The translations under genes were made by a program, and so were the position numbers. Below, in pieces: positions 10,230-47,545 of a DNA stretch of 53,359 bases (position 1 is the first letter of the stretch; every line of letters begins with the position of its first letter). Origin of the DNA: Actinomycetota bacterium (lineage in GTDB: Bacteria > Actinomycetota > CADDZG01 > JAHWKV01 > JAOPZY01); assembly GCA_036495025.1 (NCBI GenBank), contig DASXNO010000026.1, positions 1 through 53,359 on the forward strand, written 5' to 3'. The notes below the pieces were generated by a model. That model was given only the letters and a program-made list of their open reading frames with translations. It had not been told where the DNA came from and made no database searches.

Positions 10230-10276
10230 GCCTATACTTCGTCGAGCACTCGGGGAGCTTTCCTTCTCCCCGGCCC

Positions 10277-10358
10277 CTAGTGGGCTCGGGGAGAGAGGCT
10301 GAGAGGTGGGTTCGCCCACGACCCGTTGACCTGATCGGGACAATGCCCGCGAAGGGAT
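10277..10358 (+). promoter_or_regulatory. TPP (THI-box) riboswitch controlling thiO-thiS-thiG
   Basis: CUCGGGGAG...GGCUGAGAGG(10299-10304 CUGAGA)...ACCCGUUGACCUGAUCGGGACAAUGCCCGCGAAGGGA matches the conserved THI-box core. The 3' GAAGGGA overlaps the likely SD, 9 nt before the thiO GTG. Boundaries are approximate. Confidence 0.85.
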
Positions 10359-10365
10359 GTGATCG

Positions 10366-11552
10366 GTGGAGACCATTGTGGTCGGGGGCGGTGTCATCGG
10401 CCTCGGGATCGCCTGGCGCCTGTCCCAGCGTGGCCGCGAGGTCCTCGTCCTCGACCGGGCAGAGCCGGGTTCGGGCGCCTCGTACCACGCCGCCGGGATG
10501 CTCGCCCCGATCACCGAGGCAACCTTCGGCGAGGACGCCCTCCTCCGCCTGAACCTGGCCAGCGCCGCGGCCTACCCGGCCTTTCTCCGGGATCTTGCCG
10601 CTGCGACCGGGCGCTCGCTGCACTCTGGTGCCCCCGGGACCCTCTTCGTCGCCCTGGACCGCGACCAGCTCGAGGCCCTCGAGCGCCTCTACGAGTTCCA
10701 GCGCGGGCTCGGCCTCCCGGTGGAGTGGCTCCCGGGCAGCCGGTGCCGGGAGCTCGAGCCGGCCCTGCACCCGGCGGTGCGCGCCGGCATCGGGACCGAG
10801 GAGGCCGAGGTCGACCCGCGCGCGCTCACCGCCGCCCTCGGGCACGCGGTGGCCGCAGCGGGGGGGCGGGTCCGCAGTGGCGCCGAGGTCGCCGGGCTGC
10901 TCTGGACGGGTGACCGTATCGCTGGGGTGGTGCTCACCACCGGCGAGGAGATTGCCACCCCCAGCGTGGTGCTGGCGGCCGGGTGCTGGTCCGGTGGCAT
11001 CGCCGGTGTGCCGAGGGAGGTGGCGGATGCCGTTCGGCCGGTGAAAGGCCAGATCCTCCGCCTGCGGCCCCGCCCCGGCGAGGCCCTCCCGATCCGCCAC
11101 CTCCTGAGGACCGAGGACGTCTACCTCGTTCCCCGGAGCTCCCCGGCGCGCGGCGACGAGATCGTCGTAGGGGCGACGGTCGAGGAGCAGGGGTTCGACA
11201 CCTCGCTCACCGGCGGCGGTGTCTACGAGCTGCTGCGGGCCGCCATCGACGTGGTCCCGGGCGTCCGGGACATGGAGCTGGCGGAGGCATCTGCGGGCCT
11301 GCGGCCCGGCAGCCGTGACAACGCTCCCCTGCTCGGCCCCGTGCCCGGCCCCCCGTTGGGCCCCGGGTCCGATCGAGGGTCCGATCGAGGGTCCGATCGA
11401 GGGGAGGCCGCCGGCCTCGTGGTGGCGACCGGCCACCACCGCAACGGCATCCTGCTCACCCCCGTGACTGCCGACGCTATCGCCTCGGTGGTCTGCGAGG
11501 GCACGGTTCCCGAGGTCGTTGCCCCCTTCCGTCCCGACCGGTTCGCCCGCGC

Positions 11553-31789: not shown

Positions 31790-33169
31790 TCAGCCGAGGG
31801 GCGTCCCGGCGGTCTCCATCGTCTCCCGGTAGGCCGCCGGCAGGGCGAGGTCGTTCTCGACGGCAACCTTGCCGGTGATGGCCTCCACGAGCACCGTTGC
31901 CGGCGCGCCGTTCAGGTAGGGGGTCAGGTCCACGCTGCTGCGCTGCCCCGGCGTGACCGCCACCCCGGCGAGGGCGGCCGGCGCCACGGGGCCGGCCATC
32001 GTGAGGATCGTCACCCTGCAGACGGCCCGGCCCGCACCGTCGGCGACGAGGGCCAGGGTGTCGGTGCCCCCGGCGGTCGAGCCGGCGGCGACCATCCAGC
32101 GGGTGGCGGTGGCCGGGACACCCTGGACGGTGTGGTAGGCGCCCTGTGGCCCCACCGTCAGGCGCTCGACCACGACGGGCACGCCGTTGGTCGAGGTGAG
32201 GATCGTTGCGTGCCGGGTCCCGCCCGGGACCTGGTCGGACACCTTCAGCGCCTTTCGGCCCCCGGCCGGAACGGGGACGTCCTGCACCCCCACCGGGCCG
32301 GTCCCGCTCTCGACCAGGTAGACGGTGCTGACCAGCGCCTCGTGGTCGCTCGGGTTGGCGACGACGATGTCCTCCTCCCCGGAGGCGGGGACCTCGCCGC
32401 CGGGCAGCAGCCACTGGGTGGTCGGCGCGGCCGTCCCCACGTCGAGGCCGATGCCGCGTGCCCCGTCGCGGGCGGCGACCCGCATCAGTTCGCCGACGAC
32501 GACCCGCCCCCGTGACGCCGTGACGTCCAGGCCGACCGAGGCCGTCTGGGGGAAGAAGTCGCCGAGGAACACCGACGTCTGGGAGCGTTGCGGGATCTCG
32601 ACGTGGCTGAGGCCCGAGGGGACCTGGTCGCCGCTGTCCGTCAGCACGCGCACCGTCACGACCGCCTCCTCGAGGAAGGGGTTCGTCACGAGCAGGTAGG
32701 TGTCGTAGCCGGGAGCCGTGCTGGCGATCGGGAAGAGCCACCGGGTGCCCGGCTGGCGGCTGCACCGGCCGGTCGCTCCGCCGATGCTCGGGGCAAGCAC
32801 GGAGACATGGCTGCCGGTGGCCCCGCCGAAGGCCTCGACCGTGACGGGCACGTTGGCGGCCGACGGGGCGGCGGGGAGGCCACCGAAGGTCCCCGCCCCG
32901 AGGTCGGCCTCGCTGGTCGCTCCCGACGCTCCCGTCCCGGAGCGACGCACGTGGACCGGCCCCGTGCCGAGGTTGGCCGTCCAGACGGTGGACCCGAGGC
33001 CCTGCGCCGTGGGGGCCGGGCAGTACCAGGCCTCCGAGAGGGGTGCCGTCGTCACCGAGGGGGCCACCGGCGTCGCGGCGGTCTTCGACGGCACGAGGCC
33101 GTCGAGCGCCCAGGAGCCACCCATGATCAGGACGATCACCAGCGCGAACGTGAGCTCTGCCCGCCGCAT
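31790..33169 (-). CDS. Secreted/membrane-anchored beta-rich protein, DUF5719-like (assigned from remembered synteny with large actinobacterial GT2 genes)
   Basis: 459 aa starting at MRRAELTFALVIVLIMGG (TM/signal anchor). Its ATG overlaps the upstream TGA by 1 nt (TGATG). GC-rich third codon positions. The upstream 500 aa of the track ORF are out-of-frame shadow and were trimmed. Confidence 0.6.
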   Translation of the reverse strand: MRRAELTFALVIVLIMGGSWALDGLVPSKTAATPVAPSVTTAPLSEAWYCPAPTAQGLGSTVWTANLGTGPVHVRRSGTGASGATSEADLGAGTFGGLPAAPSAANVPVTVEAFGGATGSHVSVLAPSIGGATGRCSRQPGTRWLFPIASTAPGYDTYLLVTNPFLEEAVVTVRVLTDSGDQVPSGLSHVEIPQRSQTSVFLGDFFPQTASVGLDVTASRGRVVVGELMRVAARDGARGIGLDVGTAAPTTQWLLPGGEVPASGEEDIVVANPSDHEALVSTVYLVESGTGPVGVQDVPVPAGGRKALKVSDQVPGGTRHATILTSTNGVPVVVERLTVGPQGAYHTVQGVPATATRWMVAAGSTAGGTDTLALVADGAGRAVCRVTILTMAGPVAPAALAGVAVTPGQRSSVDLTPYLNGAPATVLVEAITGKVAVENDLALPAAYRETMETAGTPLG

Positions 33170-36100
33170 CAGGCACGCTCCTGACGGGAGCCGTCCGTCC
33201 CCTGGGCCCCAGACGTCGGAGTGATGACCCGGACCCGGGAGCTCGGGGGCCGGACATAGGGCCGCTCGACCCTCGGCGGCAGGAGCGGGGGCGGCGCCTG
33301 GCTCTGCGCCTTGGGCATCCTGGCCGAGAACGCCATGACGAGTCCAAGCACGACCAGCACCCCTCCCACGATCACCCAGACGATACGGATCCACTCTCCG
33401 GCGTAGCCGATCCGAAGGGTCCCGGCGACGCCGGCCGGCACGGTGAAGCCGTTGGCCCAGCCGAATATCGGCGCATGCCGCAGGTCCTGGACCCCGACGC
33501 TCGCCTGCCACCCCGGGCTGTAGACCTCGCCCAGGACAACGGTGCGGGGCGAGGTCGCCGCCGGCACGCGGCCCGAGAAGGACCCCGGCGACGTGCGGTC
33601 CAGGCCGGTGCCCACCGGTAGGGGGGGCCACTGGGTCCGCAGGATCGCCTCGGGGTCGGTGCTGCCGCTCGCGGCTGCCGGTTCGAGGGGCGGCGGCGCC
33701 AGGGCAGCGATCGGGAGGGATTCGAGGTTGGTGTAGATGTCGGCCTGGGCGAGCTGCTGGGTCAGGGCGAGGTCCTGCTGGAGGACGACGGCCTGCATCG
33801 TCGAGGCGTCCCCGTGGTCGACGACGACGAAGCGGATCCCTGCGGTCGCCAGCAGGTGACCGGCCAGATGGGTGCGCCTCCCCACCAGTGCGTCGAGCGT
33901 CTTCGACAGCCAGGCAACGCCCGGGCCGCCGCCCGGCGGCGCGACGTCGAGCAGGGAAAGACCGTCGGGGCCGGTGACGAGGTAGGGCACCGTCCTGTCC
34001 GGCCGCAGCCCCGGGCGCAGGGCGTCGACGAAGCGCTTCCCGAGCCAGAGGACGCGGAACTGGTTGTCGCTGGTCGCGGAACCCTGCACGGCGGCAAGGG
34101 CCGCCGACTCCGGACCGGTCCCCGTGACGGCGCTCGACGGGGGTGCGCTCCACGAGAGCAGCACCGGCACCCAGCCGCCCAGCACGGCGGCGGCCGAGAG
34201 GATCGCCGCGCCGGCCCCGACCGTGTGGCGCAGGCCTGCCGCATGGCGGGGGAGGTCCTGGGTGAGGCCGGCAACGAGGTAGCCGGCGCAGGCGGCCAGG
34301 GCGACGAGCGGCGGCACGAACCAGAGGGCCGGCGAGACGACCGGGGCGGGCAGCCATCCCTTGGCGACGAGACCGGCCCACAACCCGAACACCGCGATGA
34401 CGCTCGCCAGCAGGCGGACCTCGCGCCGGCGCGAGGTCGAGACGACGAGCAGCGCTCCTGCGGCGATCGCCACGGCGGCGAGCCCGGCGAAGGCGGAGAC
34501 GCCCGGCGTCAGCAGCAACGCATGCGCAAAGCTCACCGGGGACCAGAGGGGCCGGAGGGCGTTGCCGCCGCCGGGACCGGCGAAGAGCGGGCCGAGGATG
34601 GCCCCATGGGGCTGCAGGGCCTCGAGCGACCACGGGACGAGGAGCAGGGCGGCGACGGCGGACGAGCCAAGGAGCCATGCCAGCCGCCGTGGCCCCCCCG
34701 CCAGCGAGGGATGCTCCCGCAGCGCCCGGAAGCCGGCGACGAGCCAGAGGACCACGATCGCCACGAGTGCGCTTGGCGCCAGCGCGACGACGACCGCACT
34801 CAGCAGGGCCAGGCGCATGGCCTGGCGGGAGAGGGCGTCGGAGGAGGAAGGCACCGCGGGGCGCACTCCTCCGCCCGGGGCACCCGGGGGGGCCGCGCCC
34901 GGGGCGGGACCGAGCATCCGCAGGGCCATCTCGAGGAGGTACGGCGTCGCCGCGTAGAGGGCCAGCGCCCCGAGGTCCCCGGTCACCATGGTCAGGCGCA
35001 TGGCCGGGGCCAGGGCATAGACGCCGACCGCCACGATCCTGGCCGCGACGCTGGTCGTCCGGCGCTTGACGAAGCGGTTGATGCCGAAGAGCCCGAGGGC
35101 AACCAGCAGCCCGACCAGCAGCTTCTGGGCGGTGGCCGCGTTGCCGAACGAGGCGATCGCCACCAGCCAGAACAGCGGCAGGGCAGGCGATGGCGCCCCC
35201 GTCGTCCCGAGCCCGATGTCACGCCAGCCGGCGAAGTAGTCGCTGAGGAGCCGGTGGGTCTCGACGGGGAACGGCCACAGCGTCCCGGCCCCCACGGGGG
35301 CTCCGAGGAACACGTGGCGGGCGGCGATCAGCAGCACAAAGCCGATCGCCAGGGAGGACAGCACCGACGCCGACCGGGCCCACCGCCCGAGGCGGTCGGC
35401 GATGGCGCCCGGGGTCAGATGCGCAAAGGTCTTGGCGCCGAGCCGGACGGTCTCCTCTCCCCACTGCAGGAGCCGGCGCTCGAGGAAGATCCGGGCGCGC
35501 GGCAGGTCCCGGACCATGTAACGCCGCACCCTCCGGTCGGACACCTTCCGGCGGCGCTGGATCGCCCGCCGCCGCCGGGCGACGTCCGGCAGGGTCTTGA
35601 GGAACCACCCGTACGCCCGCAGGTACGGCGGGATCTCGTCGAAGCGCCGGAGGGTCGCCAGCAGCACCATCTCGGCACAGAGCACGCCGGTGTAGAGGGC
35701 GACGAGCAGGGGGACCCGCGTCGTGGAGGTGTTCTTGGCAATCGTGCGGAGCCGGTTGCGCCGGGTGAAGTACCGGATCGACTGCTCCGGCGGGCCGTCG
35801 CGCCGCCCCGTCGCCATCGCGACCGCATGGTAGAAGTACGCCTTCGGGGCCACGACCACGGGGAACCCCAGCATCCGGGCGCGGATGCAGAGGTCCAGGT
35901 CCTCCCCGAACAGAAAGTACGCGGGGTCCCAGGAGCCTCCTCGCTCCACGGTTGCCCGGCTGACGAGCATGCAGGCGCTCGTGACGAACAGAACGTCCCT
36001 GCGGACGTCGTGCTGGCCCTGGTCGATCTCACCTTCCTCGAGGCCCGACACCGGGTAGCCGAACTCGTCGGCCGACATCCCCACCTCGAGCAGCACCTCG

Positions 36101-36507
36101 GGCTCGTCCCACGAAAGGCCCTTGCCGCCGACCACCCCGGCCTCGGTCTCGAGGGCCGAGGCGACGAGGAGGCCGACGCAGTCACGGTTGAGGGCAACGT
36201 CGTCGTGGATGAACAGGTAGTACTCGGCCCTCCGGGCATCCGGGGAGACCTCGAGTGCCCGATTGGCGGCCGCCCCAAAACCGACATTGCGACCGAAGTG
36301 CATGACCGAGGCGGTGGGGAGCAGCCGTTCGACCAGGCCGGGCACCAGCTCCCGGTCCTCGGAGGCGTTGTCGACCACGACGACCTCCAGGGCGGGATAG
36401 GACTGGAGCGCAAGCGATTTGAGGCATCCGGGAAGCCAGGGACCCCCGTTGTGCGTCACGACAATCGCCAGGACCAGAGGCCAGGGGATTGCGTCCGGCT
36501 CGGTCAT
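33169..36507 (-). CDS. Large bifunctional-looking glycosyltransferase: N-terminal GT2 (GT-A) domain fused to a ~750-aa polytopic membrane domain
   Basis: LVLAIVVTHNGGPWLPGCLKSLALQSYPALEVVVVDNASED..., a DD motif (FIHDDVAL) and FGEDLDLC. Many hydrophobic helices follow over the remaining ~750 aa. ATG 36507. Confidence 0.8.
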   Translation of the reverse strand: MTEPDAIPWPLVLAIVVTHNGGPWLPGCLKSLALQSYPALEVVVVDNASEDRELVPGLVERLLPTASVMHFGRNVGFGAAANRALEVSPDARRAEYYLFIHDDVALNRDCVGLLVASALETEAGVVGGKGLSWDEPEVLLEVGMSADEFGYPVSGLEEGEIDQGQHDVRRDVLFVTSACMLVSRATVERGGSWDPAYFLFGEDLDLCIRARMLGFPVVVAPKAYFYHAVAMATGRRDGPPEQSIRYFTRRNRLRTIAKNTSTTRVPLLVALYTGVLCAEMVLLATLRRFDEIPPYLRAYGWFLKTLPDVARRRRAIQRRRKVSDRRVRRYMVRDLPRARIFLERRLLQWGEETVRLGAKTFAHLTPGAIADRLGRWARSASVLSSLAIGFVLLIAARHVFLGAPVGAGTLWPFPVETHRLLSDYFAGWRDIGLGTTGAPSPALPLFWLVAIASFGNAATAQKLLVGLLVALGLFGINRFVKRRTTSVAARIVAVGVYALAPAMRLTMVTGDLGALALYAATPYLLEMALRMLGPAPGAAPPGAPGGGVRPAVPSSSDALSRQAMRLALLSAVVVALAPSALVAIVVLWLVAGFRALREHPSLAGGPRRLAWLLGSSAVAALLLVPWSLEALQPHGAILGPLFAGPGGGNALRPLWSPVSFAHALLLTPGVSAFAGLAAVAIAAGALLVVSTSRRREVRLLASVIAVFGLWAGLVAKGWLPAPVVSPALWFVPPLVALAACAGYLVAGLTQDLPRHAAGLRHTVGAGAAILSAAAVLGGWVPVLLSWSAPPSSAVTGTGPESAALAAVQGSATSDNQFRVLWLGKRFVDALRPGLRPDRTVPYLVTGPDGLSLLDVAPPGGGPGVAWLSKTLDALVGRRTHLAGHLLATAGIRFVVVDHGDASTMQAVVLQQDLALTQQLAQADIYTNLESLPIAALAPPPLEPAAASGSTDPEAILRTQWPPLPVGTGLDRTSPGSFSGRVPAATSPRTVVLGEVYSPGWQASVGVQDLRHAPIFGWANGFTVPAGVAGTLRIGYAGEWIRIVWVIVGGVLVVLGLVMAFSARMPKAQSQAPPPLLPPRVERPYVRPPSSRVRVITPTSGAQGTDGSRQERA

Positions 36508-36565
36508 GCTCAGCAAGGACCGAGGGGGGGATTGGGGAGGCGCGGCGGGAGAAGAATGTGGGGAA

Positions 36566-37705
36566 TTATAGGGATGGTTTGCGCCCGCGGCGGCCGTGGC
36601 GGCCCGCATCGCTCTCGACCGGGACCGGAACCGGATCGGGCGGGCCGGACACGTCGTACGGTCCGGACGTCCCCGGGAGGTGGATCCCGGCGGGAGGCGC
36701 CCCGGCCCCGTCAACGTCCGGCGGCAGGGCTGGGAGGCCGCCGTCGCGTGTTGGGGCCCGGCCGGCGTCTCGTCGCTGCCTGCGGTTCTCCTCCGCCTGG
36801 CGCAGGCCGGTGGCGATCCGTTTCTGCTCGCGCGGCCTGGCGATCCCCGCAAACTCGTTCAGGAGGTCGGACAGGATCTGGTCGCGCTGGCGCTCGAGGC
36901 GCTCCTCTCGCTCGGCCAGCCGGGCCAGCAGCGACCCCTGGGACACCGCAAGCTCGGATGCCGCGCGGACCAGCCGGCTCTGCACGACCTGCAGGATGCG
37001 TCCGACGGGGTCCAGGGCCTTCAGGATGGATTCGGCGACCTCCTGCTGGCGGGCATCGATGCTCTCGCCAACCTCTCTCAGGGCGGCAACGGTCGCCGCC
37101 GCGAGGTCCCCGTCGCGGTGGTCGACCGCCTCGAGACGGTCGGCGACGGACCGGGCGTGCGCGGCAACAGTGCTCTCGAGGCCGCCGACCCGGTTCGCGA
37201 GCGCCGCCATGCCTTCCTGGGTGCGCCATTCGACGGCTTCGAGGGAGCGGGCGATGCCGTCGAGCTTGACGGTCAGCGCCTTCTTGAGGGCTGCCTGCTC
37301 GCCCTCCAGGAGCTCGATGCGGTGCTGGAGGAACTCGATCGACTCCTGCCGGGCGGCGAGAGCGAGGCGGCCGTCGAGCAGGTCGATGACGGCCTGCTCC
37401 CGGTGCTCGACGACGCTGCGCACATCGTCAAGCTCGGACCGAACGGCATCGACGGCATCCCTGGACGCCTGGAGGACCGTCAGGAAGCTCTGCTGCTCAC
37501 GCTCCTGCTCCTCGATCGCCGACTCCAGCAACTTGTCGAGGCGGCTGTGAAAGCCGACGTCGCCGAGGGTGACATCGTCCACACCGGTACCTACGGCGCC
37601 GGGCTCCCCAGCGCCGGGGTGCTCACCTGCGATGGCGTCCCACCTGGATTCCCTCCTGCGGATTCCCCCGTTACCTGCCGGTCCGTGCGCGTTGCGAGAC
37701 CCCAT
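36566..37705 (-). CDS. Hypothetical coiled-coil protein, first gene of the GT2/DUF5719 operon
   Basis: Long heptad-like E/L/A/R/Q-rich region (LDKLLESAIEEQEREQQSFL...IELLEGEQAALKKAL...) and a Pro-rich tail. GC-rich third codon positions. The start is uncertain (ATG 37705, with other in-frame candidates). Confidence 0.6.
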   Translation of the reverse strand: MGSRNAHGPAGNGGIRRRESRWDAIAGEHPGAGEPGAVGTGVDDVTLGDVGFHSRLDKLLESAIEEQEREQQSFLTVLQASRDAVDAVRSELDDVRSVVEHREQAVIDLLDGRLALAARQESIEFLQHRIELLEGEQAALKKALTVKLDGIARSLEAVEWRTQEGMAALANRVGGLESTVAAHARSVADRLEAVDHRDGDLAAATVAALREVGESIDARQQEVAESILKALDPVGRILQVVQSRLVRAASELAVSQGSLLARLAEREERLERQRDQILSDLLNEFAGIARPREQKRIATGLRQAEENRRQRRDAGRAPTRDGGLPALPPDVDGAGAPPAGIHLPGTSGPYDVSGPPDPVPVPVESDAGRHGRRGRKPSL

Positions 37706-37945
37706 TTTCGCAGACCGCACCGCCGATGCCACGAATCTGGAGGTGACGGCTGTCAGTTTGGCTGGCCCGGCAGGCGATTGTGAAATTCGGTAGAAAAACG
37801 GACCAAAATGCCCCCCGTCCGTTCCGGTCACGCACGCCATCACTTACAATCGGGACCGCCTTGCGCTCGAGAGCGGGCAGAGCAATCTCTGTGGTGTTGG
37901 GCGAATACTCGCAGGGACCGGCCGGAAATAACGGAGGGGGCATGA

Positions 37946-39217
<1,272 letters not shown>

Positions 39218-39244
39218 GGACAAGGCTCTCGGCCACCAACGAAT

Positions 39245-40879
39245 GTGACCGATACCCACAACCCCGCCATCCGGGAAGACCCCCACAGCGGCAACGGCGA
39301 CGGCCGTGAGGGGAGCGACGACCTCGAAACCCAGGTCCTCGACAAGCTCGGGGGCGGCGTTGCTGCGGCACCCACAAACGGGAACGGCAATGGCACGGCA
39401 GCGCCACCCGCGGAAGTCCCCGCCGGGAGCGCCTTCAGCCCAACACCGAGCGAGCCGCTCACCGCCCCGGTCCCCGAGGGGCCCGTCCCCGAAGGCCCGG
39501 TCCCCGAGACCAAGCCGAAGCCGGAGGCGCAGGGCATTCCCGGCGAGGCCCCGGTCGTCACCGAGCCGGTGCCGATCATTCGCCCGCTTCCCCCCTACGC
39601 AGGTCGGGACCGCCGCACGCGGAAGGAGACACTCGTCACGACGCTGGTGGCAGTCGTCGGTCTCGCCGTGCTGATCCCCGCCGCGCTCTACGTCTTCACG
39701 AATCCACCGACATGGCCGGGCACGCTCCAGCCGGCCGCCCAGGTCGACCTGAACTTCGCCCGCTCGGGTTCGATCGTGGCCGTCCTCGTCAAGTCGGGCG
39801 ACCATGTGAAGAAGGGGGACATCCTGGCCCGGCAGGACGACGTCGCCGTCAACCTCGCCCTTTCCGCCGCCGAGGCCACGCTTGCCGCCGATCAGGCCCG
39901 GCTGGCGGCGCTGGGGACACCGGCCGGGTCGAGCCCCGACCCCAAGATCCAGGCCGCTCTGGACAAGGCCCAGAAACAGCTCGATGCCGTCAACGCTGCC
40001 TCGTCGGGTTCCAAGCAGTCCGCGGAGCTTGCGCTGAACGTCACCCAGCAGGACCTCGCCAGCGCGCAGGCCGACCAGAGCCGGGACCAAGGGACCTTCG
40101 GCACCGATTGCCCGCAGGGCGCGACCGGACCCCTGGCGCCCGGGCTCCCTGCGGGGACGCCGAACTGCACGTCGCAGGACGCCCAGGTGACACGTGACTC
40201 GGAGGCCGTCACGCGGGCCCAGCTCCGCCTCCTGCAACAGCAACAGTCGACCCAGCAGGCCGAGCAAGCCGCCGCGAGCTCCCAGACGCTCGCCCAGAGC
40301 CAGCTCTCCCTGGCCCAGGCCTCCGCTCGTCCAACGGGCAGTGTGGCAACGCCCCAGGATGTGGCGGCGTTGCAGGCGCAGATCGCCGCGGACGAGGCCA
40401 ATGTGGCCTCCGAGTACGCAGCCGCGCAGCAGGCGGTGCTGACGGCGCCGATGGATGGTGTGGTCGCTGGCGTCGATGCCCTCCCGGGCGACTTCGCGGG
40501 GCCGGATGGTGTTCGCACCTACAACCGCTCGGTGACGCCGGCGACCCAGCCGTTCTCGCTGCTCGCACCCTCCGGTGCCGGCTCGGGCTCGTCACCGCAG
40601 ACCAGCTTCCTGCCGGTGGCGCAGATCTACGGAACCGGCGGGTGGCTGGTGGTGGCCCAAGTCGGGGAGCACGACGCGCTGCGGGCGCACGAGGGCGAGC
40701 GTGCCGATGTCCGCCTCGCCGGGGTGGGACGCCACACGTTCCCCGCCCGGGTCTCCCAGGTGATCGGCCAGCCGCTCCGGTCCGCAGGCGCGGTGGTCTA
40801 CAACGTGGTGCTCAAGCTCGATACCGTCCCCATGCGGGTCCTCCCCGGAATGAGCGCGCGCGTCCAACTCCATCCGTGA
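39245..40879 (+). CDS. HlyD/membrane-fusion-protein-type periplasmic adaptor with a long disordered N-terminal tail
   Basis: ~150-aa Pro/Gly-rich tail (PVPEG x3), one TM (LVTTLVAVVGLAVLIPAALYV), a lipoyl-like segment (GSIVAVLVKSGDHVKKGDILARQD), a Q/A-rich coiled coil, and ...VLTAPMDGVVAGV... followed by a beta-barrel-like C-terminus. Confidence 0.75.
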   Translation: MTDTHNPAIREDPHSGNGDGREGSDDLETQVLDKLGGGVAAAPTNGNGNGTAAPPAEVPAGSAFSPTPSEPLTAPVPEGPVPEGPVPETKPKPEAQGIPGEAPVVTEPVPIIRPLPPYAGRDRRTRKETLVTTLVAVVGLAVLIPAALYVFTNPPTWPGTLQPAAQVDLNFARSGSIVAVLVKSGDHVKKGDILARQDDVAVNLALSAAEATLAADQARLAALGTPAGSSPDPKIQAALDKAQKQLDAVNAASSGSKQSAELALNVTQQDLASAQADQSRDQGTFGTDCPQGATGPLAPGLPAGTPNCTSQDAQVTRDSEAVTRAQLRLLQQQQSTQQAEQAAASSQTLAQSQLSLAQASARPTGSVATPQDVAALQAQIAADEANVASEYAAAQQAVLTAPMDGVVAGVDALPGDFAGPDGVRTYNRSVTPATQPFSLLAPSGAGSGSSPQTSFLPVAQIYGTGGWLVVAQVGEHDALRAHEGERADVRLAGVGRHTFPARVSQVIGQPLRSAGAVVYNVVLKLDTVPMRVLPGMSARVQLHP

Positions 40880-41829
40880 CCCGGACCTCGGCCCGGGGGA
40901 CCTGGCGGGCTCTGCTCGGGTTGGTCCTCCTGCTGGCCTGCACCTGCACACCGAAGCCCTCCAAACCCGGCGCTTCGAAACCCGGGGCCTCTCCCCCCAC
41001 CTTCGCCACACCTCCGCCGTCCGGCCCGGCGATCACGCCAGCGAGTCCGGGGGCATCCTCGTCCGTGCTCCCCTTGCACCTCGAGAAGCCGGTCTGGCTC
41101 ATCGCAGCGTCGGCACTCTCATCGCTGGTGCGCCTCGACAGCGACGGAACCGTGACGAGGCGCTGGTTTGCCGACAACCGCACCCTGGTGATTGCAGGAC
41201 CCGGCGCCGCCATGCCCGCGGGTTGGACGAACCGCGTGCTGTCGCTCACCAGCCTGGACGCGATCCGCCTGGCCCTCGCCCAGGGGGTCCCCCCCGACGT
41301 CCGCGCCATCCTCTACGACGTCGAAGCGTGGTCGTTGACCCCCATCGCCGAGCAGGCCAACCCCGTCGGATCGATCGCAACCGCGGCCAGGCTCGTCCAC
41401 GGGGCGGGCCTGCAGTTCATTGCGGCACCCGGCGTCGACCTGATGGGCAGGCTCCATCCGGGACAGGGCCCCTACTACCGGAGCTACGTCGCCACCCGGT
41501 TCGCCGGGGCTGCGTCCGATTCGGCAGACATCTTCGTCGTCCAGGCCCAGACGTACCAGAACGACCCGGCCACCTATGGCACCTTCGTGCGTCAGGTGGC
41601 GGCGCAGGCGCGCGCCGCGCACCCCGGTGTGCTGGTCCTCGCCGGACTCAGCACCGGTCCCCACGGCGAGCCAACGACCGCCGACGCCATGCTGGCCGCC
41701 GTCGCCGCCACCGGCGGAACCGTCGACGGGTACTGGCTGAACATTCCCGGCCCCGGTCCCCAGTGCCCGGCCTGCGGGCCGCCGAACCCCGGCATCGCCC
41801 TCGAGTTCCTGCGCAAGCTCGGCGCCTGA
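40876..41829 (+). CDS. Lipoprotein, possibly a TIM-barrel glycan-hydrolase-like fold (weak)
   Basis: GTG 40876 forms a GTGA overlap with the adaptor stop. Lipobox LLLAC followed by a (KPSKPGAS)-type linker. The mature part has alternating beta/alpha character with ILYDVEAW and FVVQAQ motifs. The family call is only a resemblance. Confidence 0.55.
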   Translation: MTRTSARGTWRALLGLVLLLACTCTPKPSKPGASKPGASPPTFATPPPSGPAITPASPGASSSVLPLHLEKPVWLIAASALSSLVRLDSDGTVTRRWFADNRTLVIAGPGAAMPAGWTNRVLSLTSLDAIRLALAQGVPPDVRAILYDVEAWSLTPIAEQANPVGSIATAARLVHGAGLQFIAAPGVDLMGRLHPGQGPYYRSYVATRFAGAASDSADIFVVQAQTYQNDPATYGTFVRQVAAQARAAHPGVLVLAGLSTGPHGEPTTADAMLAAVAATGGTVDGYWLNIPGPGPQCPACGPPNPGIALEFLRKLGA

Positions 41830-41839
41830 GGATGCGTGC

Positions 41840-43789
41840 GTGATCGATCTGCGAGGCCTGGTCCTCTACCTCGCCACCTTCGCCGTCGTGGCGGCCGTGA
41901 TGGCGCGCTCCATCACCAAGGCGCCCCCCGATGACCAGGGCGACGGCCTCGCCGTCGTGGCGCTGCCGGCCCCATCGAAGCGCAACCACCTGCGCACCGG
42001 GATCCTGCTCGGGGTGGTCGGCGCATTCGTCGTCGCGTATCTCGGCTTCCGGTCCCCGAAGGTCGACGAGGTCTACCGCAGCCTCGTCGCGGCGATCGCC
42101 AGGCTGATCGTCGGGGACGCCCCCACGGTGGCCAGGACCCTGCAGGGGGTCGGGTTCGGCCTGCGTTTCCTCGCGCTCGCGTACCTCGTGGGCCTGGCGG
42201 TGGCCGTCCGGGCCGACCTCGGGCGACGGCTGATCGTCGCCTTCAACGTGGTGTGGCTGTTCGTCCTCTTCGTCCTGACCGACGTGGCGGTGGTGATCAT
42301 CGCCGCCGTCACCGGTCTGGCGCCGGGGTGGGCGGGCGTGCTGCGCACGGGGCTGTCGCTCATTGCCATCGTCGTCATGGACGGCCGGGTGTTGCTCACC
42401 ACGTTCCAGCTTCCTCGGCCGACCACGCTCCCCGTCGAGCCCGGCCGGCCGCGCTCGGACACGGTCGTGACGTGGACGGTGCTCGTCGGCGTGACGGGAC
42501 TGGGCGTGGCCCTCGCCGTGTACGCCTTCAGCCCCTACGTCCCTCCCAGCCTGTGGGTCCTGCTGGCCGGCTATTGCGTCTTCCCGGTCTTCCTGATCTC
42601 CGGGCGCGTGGTCCTGGCGGGGCTCAACGCGTTCTTCCACGCACCCCCGCCGGTCGGGCTGCGGCGACCTGCCATCGACGTGATCATCCCCGCCTACAAC
42701 GAGGAGGGGGGCCTGGGCGACACCCTCCTGTCCATCGACCGCGCCGCCGAGGTCTACGGAGGGCCCGTCTGCGTGATCGTGGCCGACGACGGCTCGACGG
42801 ACGCCACGAACGAGCTTGCCAACCGGGTCATCGCCAACTTCCGGGCTGCGACCGGCATGGTGGTGGGGTCGGGCCACCGGGGGAAGGCGTGGGCCCTCAA
42901 CACCGCCCTCTCCCATACGACGGCCGACATCATTGTCCGCATCGACGCCGACGTCGTGATCCACGAGGAGTCCCTCCTGTACGCCCCCGGCTGGTTCGCC
43001 GACCCCGCCGTCGGCAGCATCTCGGCGATGACGCTGCCCAACCACCAGGAAACCTGGTACGCCCACCTGCGCATCTTCGAGGCCCTCCTCGAATTCGGCC
43101 TGTGCCGCCGCGGGGATCAGGTGGTGGACGGCATCGGCTGCGTGCCGGGCACCTACACGGCGTTTCGCCGCCGGCCCGCGATGGACGTCGGGGGGTTCGT
43201 GATGGGGATGAACGGGGAGGACGCGGACCTGACCATGCAGCTCGGCCGGCTCGGGTACCGGGCCGTGCTCGACCCCCGCATCCGCATCTTCGAGGACGTC
43301 CCGAGGACGTTTGCCGAGTTCATCGAGCAGCGCACCCGCTGGAGCCGGGGTGAGGCGCAGATCTTTGCCCGGCACCTCCCGTTCCGGGTCGGGTTCGCCG
43401 GGCCCCGCACGTGGTTCACCCTGTTCCGGGTGTACTCCCGCCGGATCACCTCCCAGCTCCGGGCCCCGCTCATCATGCTCGCCCTCGCCGCGTCGATCCT
43501 CGCACCCACGGCCCGCCACACCCTGGGCGTGGTGCTGACGCTCAACGTGATCGTGATCGCCCCCATCTTCGCCCTTTTCTTCGTCCTCGCCCTGTACCAC
43601 GGGCAACTGCGCGAGCTGCGCTACCTGCCGCTGTACTTCCCGTTCCAGATGGCCCGGCGCCTGGCGAAGTTCGAGTCGACACTCTCGCTGCCCACTCGCC
43701 CCTCCCCGTCGCTCCTGCGCAGGCGGATCCCCGGAAGCCCGCACCCCTCCCCTGCGCCGGCGCCCCAGCCCGTCTCCCTCCGGTCGTAG
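41840..43789 (+). CDS. Processive family-2 glycosyltransferase (polysaccharide synthase-like) with N- and C-terminal TM bundles
   Basis: DVIIPAYNEE, ADDGSTD, RIDADV (DxD), NGEDADLT (TED-like) and QRTRWSRG (QxxRW). Multiple TM helices lie before (~250 aa) and after the catalytic domain. Confidence 0.85.
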   Translation: MIDLRGLVLYLATFAVVAAVMARSITKAPPDDQGDGLAVVALPAPSKRNHLRTGILLGVVGAFVVAYLGFRSPKVDEVYRSLVAAIARLIVGDAPTVARTLQGVGFGLRFLALAYLVGLAVAVRADLGRRLIVAFNVVWLFVLFVLTDVAVVIIAAVTGLAPGWAGVLRTGLSLIAIVVMDGRVLLTTFQLPRPTTLPVEPGRPRSDTVVTWTVLVGVTGLGVALAVYAFSPYVPPSLWVLLAGYCVFPVFLISGRVVLAGLNAFFHAPPPVGLRRPAIDVIIPAYNEEGGLGDTLLSIDRAAEVYGGPVCVIVADDGSTDATNELANRVIANFRAATGMVVGSGHRGKAWALNTALSHTTADIIVRIDADVVIHEESLLYAPGWFADPAVGSISAMTLPNHQETWYAHLRIFEALLEFGLCRRGDQVVDGIGCVPGTYTAFRRRPAMDVGGFVMGMNGEDADLTMQLGRLGYRAVLDPRIRIFEDVPRTFAEFIEQRTRWSRGEAQIFARHLPFRVGFAGPRTWFTLFRVYSRRITSQLRAPLIMLALAASILAPTARHTLGVVLTLNVIVIAPIFALFFVLALYHGQLRELRYLPLYFPFQMARRLAKFESTLSLPTRPSPSLLRRRIPGSPHPSPAPAPQPVSLRS

Positions 43790-43831
43790 GGGCCGGAGGG
43801 AGACGCTGCCGTCTGGCTATAGTCGAGTGAC

Positions 43832-47545
<3,714 letters not shown>

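Follow-up and report, generated by a model that had tools for sequence, protein, structure and literature searches.

A four-gene unit on the forward strand of contig DASXNO010000026.1, from an Actinomycetota bacterium (assembly GCA_036495025.1), probably constitutes a synthase-dependent module for glycan synthesis and export in a cell without an outer membrane. The unit (37946-43789) lies in a window of 53,359 nt with about 70% G+C, by which we mean the whole stretch of DNA that was analysed, and it comprises sqdB, a gene for a membrane-fusion protein (MFP; hereafter the adaptor), a lipoprotein gene and a gene for a membrane-integrated family 2 glycosyltransferase (GT2). We place the probability of this reading at about 0.6, with functions that we infer from gene arrangement, homology, motif conservation, predicted folds, co-conservation and gene fusions. 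An uncharacterised synthase-dependent polysaccharide secretion apparatus had been proposed for the last three genes in the original prediction, and the proposal is supported by the co-conservation of these genes in other genomes, by the HAS/BcsA-like fold predicted for the GT2 and by the lack of a pump among the scanned open reading frames (ORFs) of the window and the recurrent neighbours in relatives.

The functional unit is four genes, with the upstream sqdB orthologue belonging with the trio. The sqdB gene (37946-39217, + strand, 423 aa) is the first of the co-directional unit, and its stop lies 27 nt from the start of the adaptor gene (39245-40879, + strand, 544 aa). The adaptor stop TGA and the lipoprotein start GTG share a GTGA overlap at 40876-40879 (the boundary was read as ...CAT CCG TGA / GTG ACC...), so that the lipoprotein gene (40876-41829, + strand, 317 aa) begins within the upstream stop. 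A 10-nt spacer (41830-41839) then separates the lipoprotein stop (TGA, 41827-41829) from the GTG start at 41840 of the GT2 gene (41840-43789, + strand, 649 aa). Third-position GC is 0.86 in the adaptor, 0.87 in the lipoprotein and 0.94 in the GT2, as against 0.70 overall, and the three are therefore real coding frames, whereas the 5' extension of the lipoprotein ORF (40642-40875) has a value of only 0.45 and is for this reason regarded as non-coding. The three tightly coupled genes of the original prediction were thus recovered with the same ORF coordinates, overlap and gap. A scan of 37400-44300 gave neither a sigma-70-like promoter nor an intrinsic terminator, a result that is uninformative for a genome of 70% GC, and the Rfam scan gave no riboswitch near the module.

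Co-conservation and gene neighbourhoods

Relatives of the GT2 were collected by scanning one genome per GTDB species, and the loci of the best 80 of the 338 relatives found were analysed. Almost all of these loci are from metagenome-assembled genomes (MAGs) of Acidimicrobiales, Streptosporangiaceae, Solirubrobacterales, Mycobacteriales and other Actinomycetota, together with Dormibacterota; Acidithrix ferrooxidans PY-F3 is the one cultured organism among them. The window proteins served as tblastn queries for partner genes, at distances from the GT2 of up to 2.5 kb for the adaptor and up to 4 kb for the lipoprotein, and ORF clustering was applied separately. An adaptor homologue was found at 68 of the 80 loci by tblastn and at 72 by ORF clustering, a lipoprotein homologue at 62, and both partners at 53. 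The trio is accordingly co-conserved across several actinomycetotal orders (Acidimicrobiales, Streptosporangiaceae, Solirubrobacterales and Mycobacteriales among the groups represented) and in Dormibacterota MAGs.

This association persists through extensive rearrangement. The genes occur in at least nine orientation patterns, the commonest of which is divergent (<lipoprotein <adaptor | GT2>, 36 loci); among the further arrangements are adaptor> <lipoprotein GT2> and GT2> adaptor> lipoprotein>, and the order seen in the window is rare. Close relatives (L081, L082 and L083) retain the full order sqdB-adaptor-lipoprotein-GT2-metH. At the Acidithrix ferrooxidans PY-F3 locus (L075:6015-13476), an adaptor of 573 aa adjoins a GT2 of 669 aa, and the pair is followed by galK, galT and a DeoR regulator on the other strand, with no lipoprotein homologue detected nearby. 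Several MAGs carry two paralogous copies of the module (L011/L013, L032/L036, L053/L080, L027/L071, L023/L066, L014/L078 and L058/L065), and the members of one such pair lie about 125 kb apart on a single contig.

The pump searches were directed at linked partners, that is, at the ORFs of the window and at the genes flanking the module in relatives. The Pfam scan over the window ORFs, from which the stretch at 30.7-33.2 kb was left out as holding no convincing coding ORF, detected no ABC, RND or MFS pump, as the original prediction had stated. The neighbour census applied Pfam to 126 flanking genes from about 75 loci and matched 79 families; among the 25 commonest, each seen at least twice, there was no ABC, MacB/FtsX, RND, MFS or OEP family. 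Likewise, no TolC-type or other outer-membrane exit protein appeared in the window scan or among the recurrent neighbour families. The commonest flanking family was Epimerase/GDP_Man_Dehyd (nine genes, the SqdB-likes), followed by KdpA, SHMT, PG_binding_1, HAD and GtrA, and the other recurrent neighbours (kdpABC/E, glyA, coxLS and an ABC-F protein) are housekeeping genes. Neither the ABC-F protein (cluster c37) nor the KdpABC genes close to some of the loci are exporters; both are neighbours of this housekeeping kind. The adaptor in relatives is thus paired with the GT2 and not with a pump, and no transporter family recurs beside it.

The window also encodes two sortases and T2SSE/T2SSF/TadE-like (Tad) genes. 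The sortases indicate a Gram-positive-type wall and the whole set fits a monoderm envelope, in agreement with the original prediction.

The four proteins and their fused relatives

The GT2 matches the Pfam families Glyco_trans_2_3, Glyco_tranf_2_3 and Glycos_transf_2, and carries the motifs DDGS at residue 316 (D317), DAD at 369 (D369xD371), GED at 459-461 and QRTRW at 497-501. In the family alignment A1 (n = 34 full-length relatives, 36-87% identity), D317, D369xD371, GED and Q497RxRW501 are all invariant; the full motif set that had been ascribed to this polytopic protein is thus present and shared by its family. The GED(x)DLT-type motif resembles the version found in HAS, NodC and chitin synthases. 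Among NCBIfam models, PgaC_IcaA (109 bits, cut-off 422), CelA (63 bits, cut-off 699) and NodC (62 bits, cut-off 550) all fall short, and by these profiles the GT2 belongs to none of the named synthase families.

In the AF2 model (pLDDT 86.1, pTM 0.86), about seven N-terminal transmembrane (TM) helices (41840-42637) precede a GT-A domain (residues 279-512; 42668-43375), which is followed by C-terminal interface and TM helices (residues 522-615; 43376-43684). The top Foldseek match is CvHAS 7sp7 (E 2.6e-14, 425 aligned columns, TM-score 0.62 on the target), and the next are BcsA of E. coli and Rhodobacter, PcManGT and Xenopus HAS1, with CvHAS, BcsA and XlHAS1 falling between E 1e-14 and 1e-10. 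The HAS and BcsA alignments span 425-590 columns, more than the GT-A domain alone, and lipid-carrier GT2s such as ArnC rank far below. The closest solved folds to the predicted structure are therefore processive, channel-forming synthases, as would be expected from the original prediction, and the processivity, channel and product of the GT2 are putative. A further invariant loop, DDxGDG (residues 31-36; 41930-41947), sits in a short beta-hairpin between the first two TM helices, on the cytoplasmic side by topology count; we know of no counterpart in HAS or BcsA.

The adaptor matches Pfam Biotin_lipoyl_2 (30.9 bits, gathering threshold 29.8, residues 174-196) and HlyD_3 (24.3 bits, gathering threshold 22.2, residues 457-527). 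Its NCBIfam matches are to MFP families only (RND_mfp, HlyD, MdtN, EmrA, DevB and MacA), all below their cut-offs, with 66 bits for TIGR01730 RND_mfp. Searched against the PDB, the family profile A3 (36 members) matched the TriA/TriB fusion 6vej (90 bits) and MacA 3fpp and 5nik (84 and 82 bits), followed by MexJ, the 'membrane-fusion protein' 5xu0, EmrA, LipC and HlyD. Judged from these matches, the fold is a lipoyl half-domain split by an alpha-helical hairpin and followed by a beta-barrel (40613-40876), the arrangement that defines an MFP, and the HlyD-type adaptor described in the original prediction, with its TM helix, lipoyl-like part, hairpin and beta-barrel, is a genuine MFP of the MacA/EmrA type. 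The structure 5xu0 is one that we take to come from a Gram-positive bacterium; an MFP in a cell without an outer membrane is not paradoxical in itself.

The single TM helix of the adaptor (residues 130-148; 39632-39688) is preceded by a basic cluster, RDRRTRKE, and by the positive-inside rule the bulk of the protein would consequently lie outside the cytoplasm. The cytoplasmic tail before it (39245-39628) is 128 aa long and rich in Pro, Gly, Ala and Glu (19% Pro, 12% Gly). It had been called unusual, a description that does not hold for this family, in which long tails are common: half of the members (31 of 62) reach 100 aa or more and the median lies near 100 aa, both figures being upper estimates because each ORF was counted from its earliest start codon. 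In the long N-termini Pfam recognised no domain, be it PilZ, GGDEF or another, except in the two SqdB fusions described below. On the outer side, the alpha-hairpin (residues ~205-400; 39857-40444) is rich in A, Q, L and S and is much longer in the window protein than in the family consensus. Each arm of about 80 residues would measure some 12 nm at 1.5 Å per residue, which fits a tube reaching into the wall. The hairpin tip (40109-40168) is a Pro/Gly-rich loop between two cysteines, C289 and C308 (DC...NC), and another long-hairpin adaptor (L106:1302-2792) has the same Cys-bracketed tip (AC...AC). This bracketing suggests a disulfide-closed end in place of a TolC-docking tip.

The lipoprotein begins with MTRTSARGTWRALLGLVLLLAC|T, its signal peptide ending in the lipobox LLLAC (residues 18-22; 40927-40941), and continues with a Pro/Ser-rich linker (40942-41085) and a (beta/alpha)8 barrel (41086-41826). 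The lipobox Cys is conserved across the family, with the consensus ...AGC. The AF2 model (mean pLDDT 85.8, residues 70-317 mostly above 90) has eight strand/helix repeats and is confidently predicted to be a TIM barrel. No match was found in Pfam, in NCBIfam or in the PDB profile search of A2 at E ≤ 10, so that the lipoprotein of unrecognised family in the original prediction remains one; a profile search of 1.84 billion proteins returned, among the 150 top matches listed, only family members and no bridge to a known family. Foldseek against the PDB gave generic TIM barrels only (TM-scores 0.3-0.45), and a specific enzyme identity by fold was rejected, the hits being PEP-mutase/isocitrate-lyase, triosephosphate isomerase and aldolases, with one chitinase at rank 33. 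Against CAZy-type Pfam families the lipoprotein family gave no match, except for one member with GH114 at E 0.05.

The family is large, with 1851 clusters at 50% identity (E ≤ 1e-3), and has invariant residues at strand ends, namely W74, D148-x-E150-x-W152 (D148 and E150 on strand 4; D148-x-E150 at 41317-41325), Q223-x-Q225, S259 and W287-x-N289. A CPxC motif is also conserved (CPAC in the window protein, 41764-41775). Some members contain two tandem barrels (P0249-P0254), and others are fused to a ricin-B lectin (P0310), a fucose-specific lectin (P0286) or a Big_7 (Ig) domain (P0257). Lectin fusions are typical of carbohydrate-active enzymes, and because its relatives carry lectin domains we read the lipoprotein, with moderate confidence, as a probable glycan hydrolase or modifier.

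The protein encoded by 37946-39217 matched Arabidopsis SQD1 (1i24/1qrr) with 544 bits over residues 8-392 in a phmmer search of the PDB. Its score of 468 bits with the NCBIfam model NF041015 lies below the cut-off of 575 and is more than ten times that of any other SDR model, the next being GalE with 37 bits. The catalytic motifs GTMGEYG (residue 149, catalytic Thr) and YHLSK (residue 187, Tyr-His-x-x-Lys) are kept, and by homology the gene is an SqdB/SQD1 orthologue with intact catalytic motifs. At 11 of the 80 loci an SqdB-like gene is found no more than 5 kb from the GT2, and ORF clustering added L006, for about 12 in total. They form two clades, one of the window type (55-62% identity to the window protein) and a divergent one (about 40%) that keeps the T and the Y-H-x-x-K; NF041015 is the best model for all of them (312-468 bits). 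On the neighbour-joining tree of the GT2, adjacency to sqdB appears at no fewer than six separate places and in differing arrangements, and this repeated, independent adjacency argues for a functional link between sqdB and the module.

The relationship was also viewed from the side of SqdB, in the 80 closest metagenomic homologues (59-95% identity). The proposition that sqdB always marks this module was rejected, as only L083, of the same lineage as the window, and L106, with the order sqdB-adaptor-GT2-lipoprotein and an adaptor matching A3 with an hhalign probability of 99.9%, stand beside it. Around the closest SqdB homologues (L084-L161, high-GC soil contigs), the commonest genes beside sqdB were small Glycos_transf_2 genes (14 of 81 neighbours) and LPG_synthase_TM genes (12 of 81), and not the GT4 SqdX. 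From this gene content, UDP-sulfoquinovose seems in this SqdB clade to be used as a rule by GT2-type enzymes, and the neighbourhoods hint at an undescribed route of sulfoquinovose use. No other candidate sulfoquinovosyltransferase (GT4 or GT8) was detected in the scanned ORFs of the 53 kb. That the product of the window module contains sulfoquinovose is a possibility to which we give somewhat less than even odds.

Gene fusions tie some of these proteins together. Two single ORFs, L052 3635-6181 (+; 848 aa) and L001 54-2477 (+; 807 aa), encode in order an SqdB-like domain, a Gly/Ala/Pro-rich low-complexity linker some 150 aa long, then a basic cluster, a TM helix and an MFP. In both, the YxxxK of the SqdB-like domain is changed to FxxxQ, and for this reason the domain is probably an inactive module that binds a nucleotide sugar rather than an enzyme. 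Since the linker of these fusions takes the same position as the Pro/Gly-rich tail of the window adaptor, that tail may by analogy serve to dock SqdB, which has a gene of its own. In P0115 (L048:7914-10766, +; 969 aa), a GT2 continues in frame into a TIM barrel with 37% identity to the window lipoprotein (E 2e-41). Its junction retains a basic stretch and an LVVGC lipobox, and with the lipobox intact P0115 may be genuinely fused or may stem from read-through or misassembly; it was given less weight.

Other features of the window are more distant from the module or of separate character. Divergent from sqdB lie a gene for a protein of 1229 aa (33169-36858, - strand), in which some 12 TM helices come after a GT2 domain (residues 129-345), and a gene for a protein of 425 aa (36566-37843, - strand) without a Pfam hit; as listed, the two ORFs overlap by about 290 nt, and their start codons are uncertain. 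Genes of similar size and placement on the same strand occur in L081 and L082, a likeness of size, position and strand only, and tblastn found no homologue of the pair at the other 80 loci. The pair may represent a second glycan system. Further upstream, thiamine genes are preceded by a TPP riboswitch at 10241-10374 (+), which scores 56.4 bits with Rfam RF00059 and so exceeds the gathering score, and ThiG and a DAO-type oxidase were detected among the ORFs at 1-21 kb.

Proposed mechanism and competing explanations

In the mechanism that we propose, SqdB would convert UDP-glucose, together with sulfite, into UDP-sulfoquinovose in the cytoplasm, and the GT2, as an inverting HAS/BcsA-like synthase, would join the sugars of UDP-sugar donors, UDP-sulfoquinovose possibly among them, into a beta-linked glycan and pass the growing chain through its own transmembrane domain. 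The disordered cytoplasmic tail of the adaptor may dock SqdB or the synthase. Outside the membrane, the MFP would oligomerise above the exit of the synthase and act as a co-polymerase, as a conduit through the wall zone, or as both, without TolC, in a role like that proposed for Alg44, BgsB and XcsB in diderms. The tethered TIM-barrel lipoprotein would be a carbohydrate-active enzyme, most likely a hydrolase, that trims, releases or remodels the chain in the manner of XcsC, BcsZ and PslG. The most specific version of this scheme, in which the module makes and exports a sulfonated beta-glycan that consists of or contains sulfoquinovose, with SqdB held by the tail (and joined to it covalently in some lineages) to feed the HAS-like synthase and an MFP tube replacing the outer part of diderm systems, is put forward only tentatively.

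Several observations weigh against the scheme or parts of it. By sequence, the best PDB match of the GT2 is PcManGT 6yv7 with 123 bits, compared with 72 bits for BcsA, and this small crenarchaeal mannosyltransferase has, to our knowledge, no demonstrated polymerising activity. Beyond the GT domain there are just two to three helices, and the N-terminal domain with its seven TM helices is without structural precedent. No c-di-GMP or other regulatory domain was found, Pfam giving no PilZ on any protein of the module. The lipoprotein barrel has no CAZy, Pfam or PDB family match, and its Foldseek hits are of the generic kind noted above (TM 0.3-0.45). On the side of SqdB, adjacency is limited to about 14% of GT2 loci, only two (L083 and L106) of the 80 closest metagenomic homologues adjoin the module, and the fused domains carry FxxxQ for YxxxK; the GT2-lipoprotein joining in P0115, with its intact lipobox, may be a read-through or an assembly artefact.

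The main rival is a GT2 that performs a single addition, transferring a sugar such as beta-sulfoquinovose onto polyprenyl phosphate or a membrane lipid, with the adaptor and lipoprotein acting on the glycolipid outside, in glycolipid export or extracytoplasmic glycosylation. The PcManGT match at sequence level (123 bits) speaks for such an enzyme, Pfam Glyco_transf_21 of the ceramide glucosyltransferase type also matches (39 bits), and the D/D/D/QxxRW signature is found in non-polymerising GT21 enzymes as well. GtrA-like genes flank 5 of about 75 loci, and the small GT2 and LPG_synthase_TM genes beside the closest SqdB homologues suggest lipid-linked sulfoquinovose chemistry. However, in the full-length model HAS and BcsA outrank ArnC-type GT2s (425-590 versus about 300 columns), about ten membrane helices surround the GT domain, and an obligatory MFP partner together with lectin-fused TIM-barrel relatives fits a polymer better than a lipid. 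On balance we consider this rival unlikely. Far less probable still is that the adaptor serves ordinary efflux or secretion together with an ABC or MFS partner from another site in the genome, and that shared regulation or chance has placed it beside the GT2. By sequence the adaptor is indeed closest to the drug-efflux MFPs TriA/B, MacA and MexJ, and close homologues are annotated as 'AcrA' or 'HlyD family secretion protein', but it adjoins the GT2 at 68-72 of 80 loci, which span several orders as well as at least one further phylum and differ in gene order, the flanking genes show no recurrent transporter family, and a sugar-nucleotide enzyme domain of the SqdB type is fused to the adaptor in two MAGs. 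Synteny and fusions together therefore make an unlinked pump partner unlikely.

A different question is whether sqdB is a mere neighbour of the trio, serving a membrane sulfolipid or another glycoconjugate, with the trio remaining a glycan synthase module that uses UDP-Glc or UDP-GlcNAc. This would account for the roughly 86% of GT2 loci that have no sqdB within 5 kb and for the position of most close SqdB homologues away from the module, and there are weak hints of a HexNAc substrate in the GEDxDLT motif, in HAS as the top structural match and in the strand-4 D-x-E, which we compare to that of GH18/GH56-type enzymes. Against this stand the adjacency at six or more places on the GT2 tree, which involves both SqdB clades and varied arrangements, the existence of SqdB-adaptor fusions, and the placement in the window itself, where sqdB lies immediately upstream on the same strand and no GT4 or GT8 occurs in the scanned ORFs. 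We hold this separation of sqdB from the trio to be doubtful, if less so than a single-addition enzyme.

Relation to known systems and significance

The BgsB-BgsA system, named in the original prediction as the only described parallel known to it, is not alone as a precedent, and Alg8/Alg44 and XcsA-XcsB-XcsC are closer architectural parallels (PMC4436075, PMC12430437). For cyanobacterial extracellular cellulose, an operon encodes XcsA (GT2 and PilZ), the HlyD-like XcsB and the endoglucanase XcsC, and works with a TolC-like channel (PMC12430437, citing Maeda et al. 2018). The module in the window would share with it the three-gene logic of a membrane GT2, an HlyD-type adaptor and an extracytoplasmic glycan-active enzyme and the use of neither BcsB nor an ABC, RND or MFS pump. 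The window module differs in having no PilZ and no outer-membrane factor, in its sortase-bearing context and in the 7-TM N-terminal domain of its GT2; its third protein is an orphan TIM-barrel lipoprotein and not a recognised endoglucanase, and sqdB is attached.

In Pseudomonas alginate synthesis, the GT2 Alg8 interacts directly with Alg44, a co-polymerase combining PilZ with an MFP-like part (PMC4436075). The likeness lies in a single-pass partner with an MFP-like outer part and a cytoplasmic regulatory or ligand-binding domain, a layout shared by the SqdB-like::MFP proteins of L052 and L001. However, the cytoplasmic domain of Alg44 is PilZ, whereas the window adaptor has a disordered tail in its place, and relatives an SqdB-like domain, and alginate, made from GDP-mannuronate, leaves via AlgK, AlgX, AlgG and AlgE to an outer-membrane porin. 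Sinorhizobium BgsB (MFP) and BgsA (GT2) make a mixed-linkage beta-glucan with a need for TolC, and resemble the window genes in the order of adaptor then GT2, in the D, D, D, QxxRW motifs and in the requirement of BgsB for polymer production (PMC13438883). Unlike the window module, this is a TolC-dependent diderm system in which the C-terminus of BgsA binds c-di-GMP, without a lipoprotein or sugar-nucleotide synthase gene (PMC13438883). BgsA did not surface as a specific relative of the GT2 in general searches, in which no direct comparison of the two was made.

Among the solved synthases, HAS (CvHAS 7sp7 and Xenopus HAS1 8smm) and BcsA (4hg6 and 7lby) share the GT-A core, interface helices and QxxRW with the GT2 model. 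Identity is only 14-20%, however, the TM helices of the window GT2 are arranged as seven N-terminal and two to three C-terminal, and HAS acts alone and BcsA with BcsB, neither using an MFP. The gene upstream of the adaptor is a full-length orthologue of SQD1/SqdB with motifs intact (544 bits to SQD1), but sulfolipid systems use SqdX/SQD2 (GT4) or SqdD, whereas the neighbours of SqdB in the window and in related loci are a GT2, an MFP and a TIM-barrel lipoprotein. Our literature search found neither an actinobacterial or other Gram-positive system of GT2 and MFP nor a sulfoquinovose polysaccharide, which is not proof of absence, and the literature mentions no MFP neighbour for the mixed-linkage glucan synthase of the Gram-positive Romboutsia.

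What is known of synthase-dependent polysaccharide secretion comes almost wholly from diderms, in which an MFP or BcsB and an outer-membrane pore form the path beyond the inner membrane. The present analysis supports the module as a new monoderm variant of MFP-using, synthase-dependent glycan secretion and as the representative of a large uncharacterised family, in which the pairing of GT2 and MFP is widespread in uncultured soil Actinomycetota and Dormibacterota without an outer-membrane part, frequently as more than one paralogous set in a genome. This reading would give a function to a large family of 'hypothetical' proteins, and Acidithrix ferrooxidans PY-F3, as a cultured carrier of the adaptor-GT2 pair, could be used as a test organism. 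Sulfoquinovose is currently attributed mainly to the sulfolipids of phototrophs. The unit would be a compact four-gene cassette for a possibly anionic polymer, and if sqdB feeds the synthase, soil Gram-positives would produce sulfoquinovose in polymeric form. As far as we know, this would be a first on two counts, as a bacterial sulfoquinovose polysaccharide and as a synthase-MFP glycan conduit in a monoderm, and it would point to a large and unrecognised use of sulfoquinovose by soil Actinomycetota.

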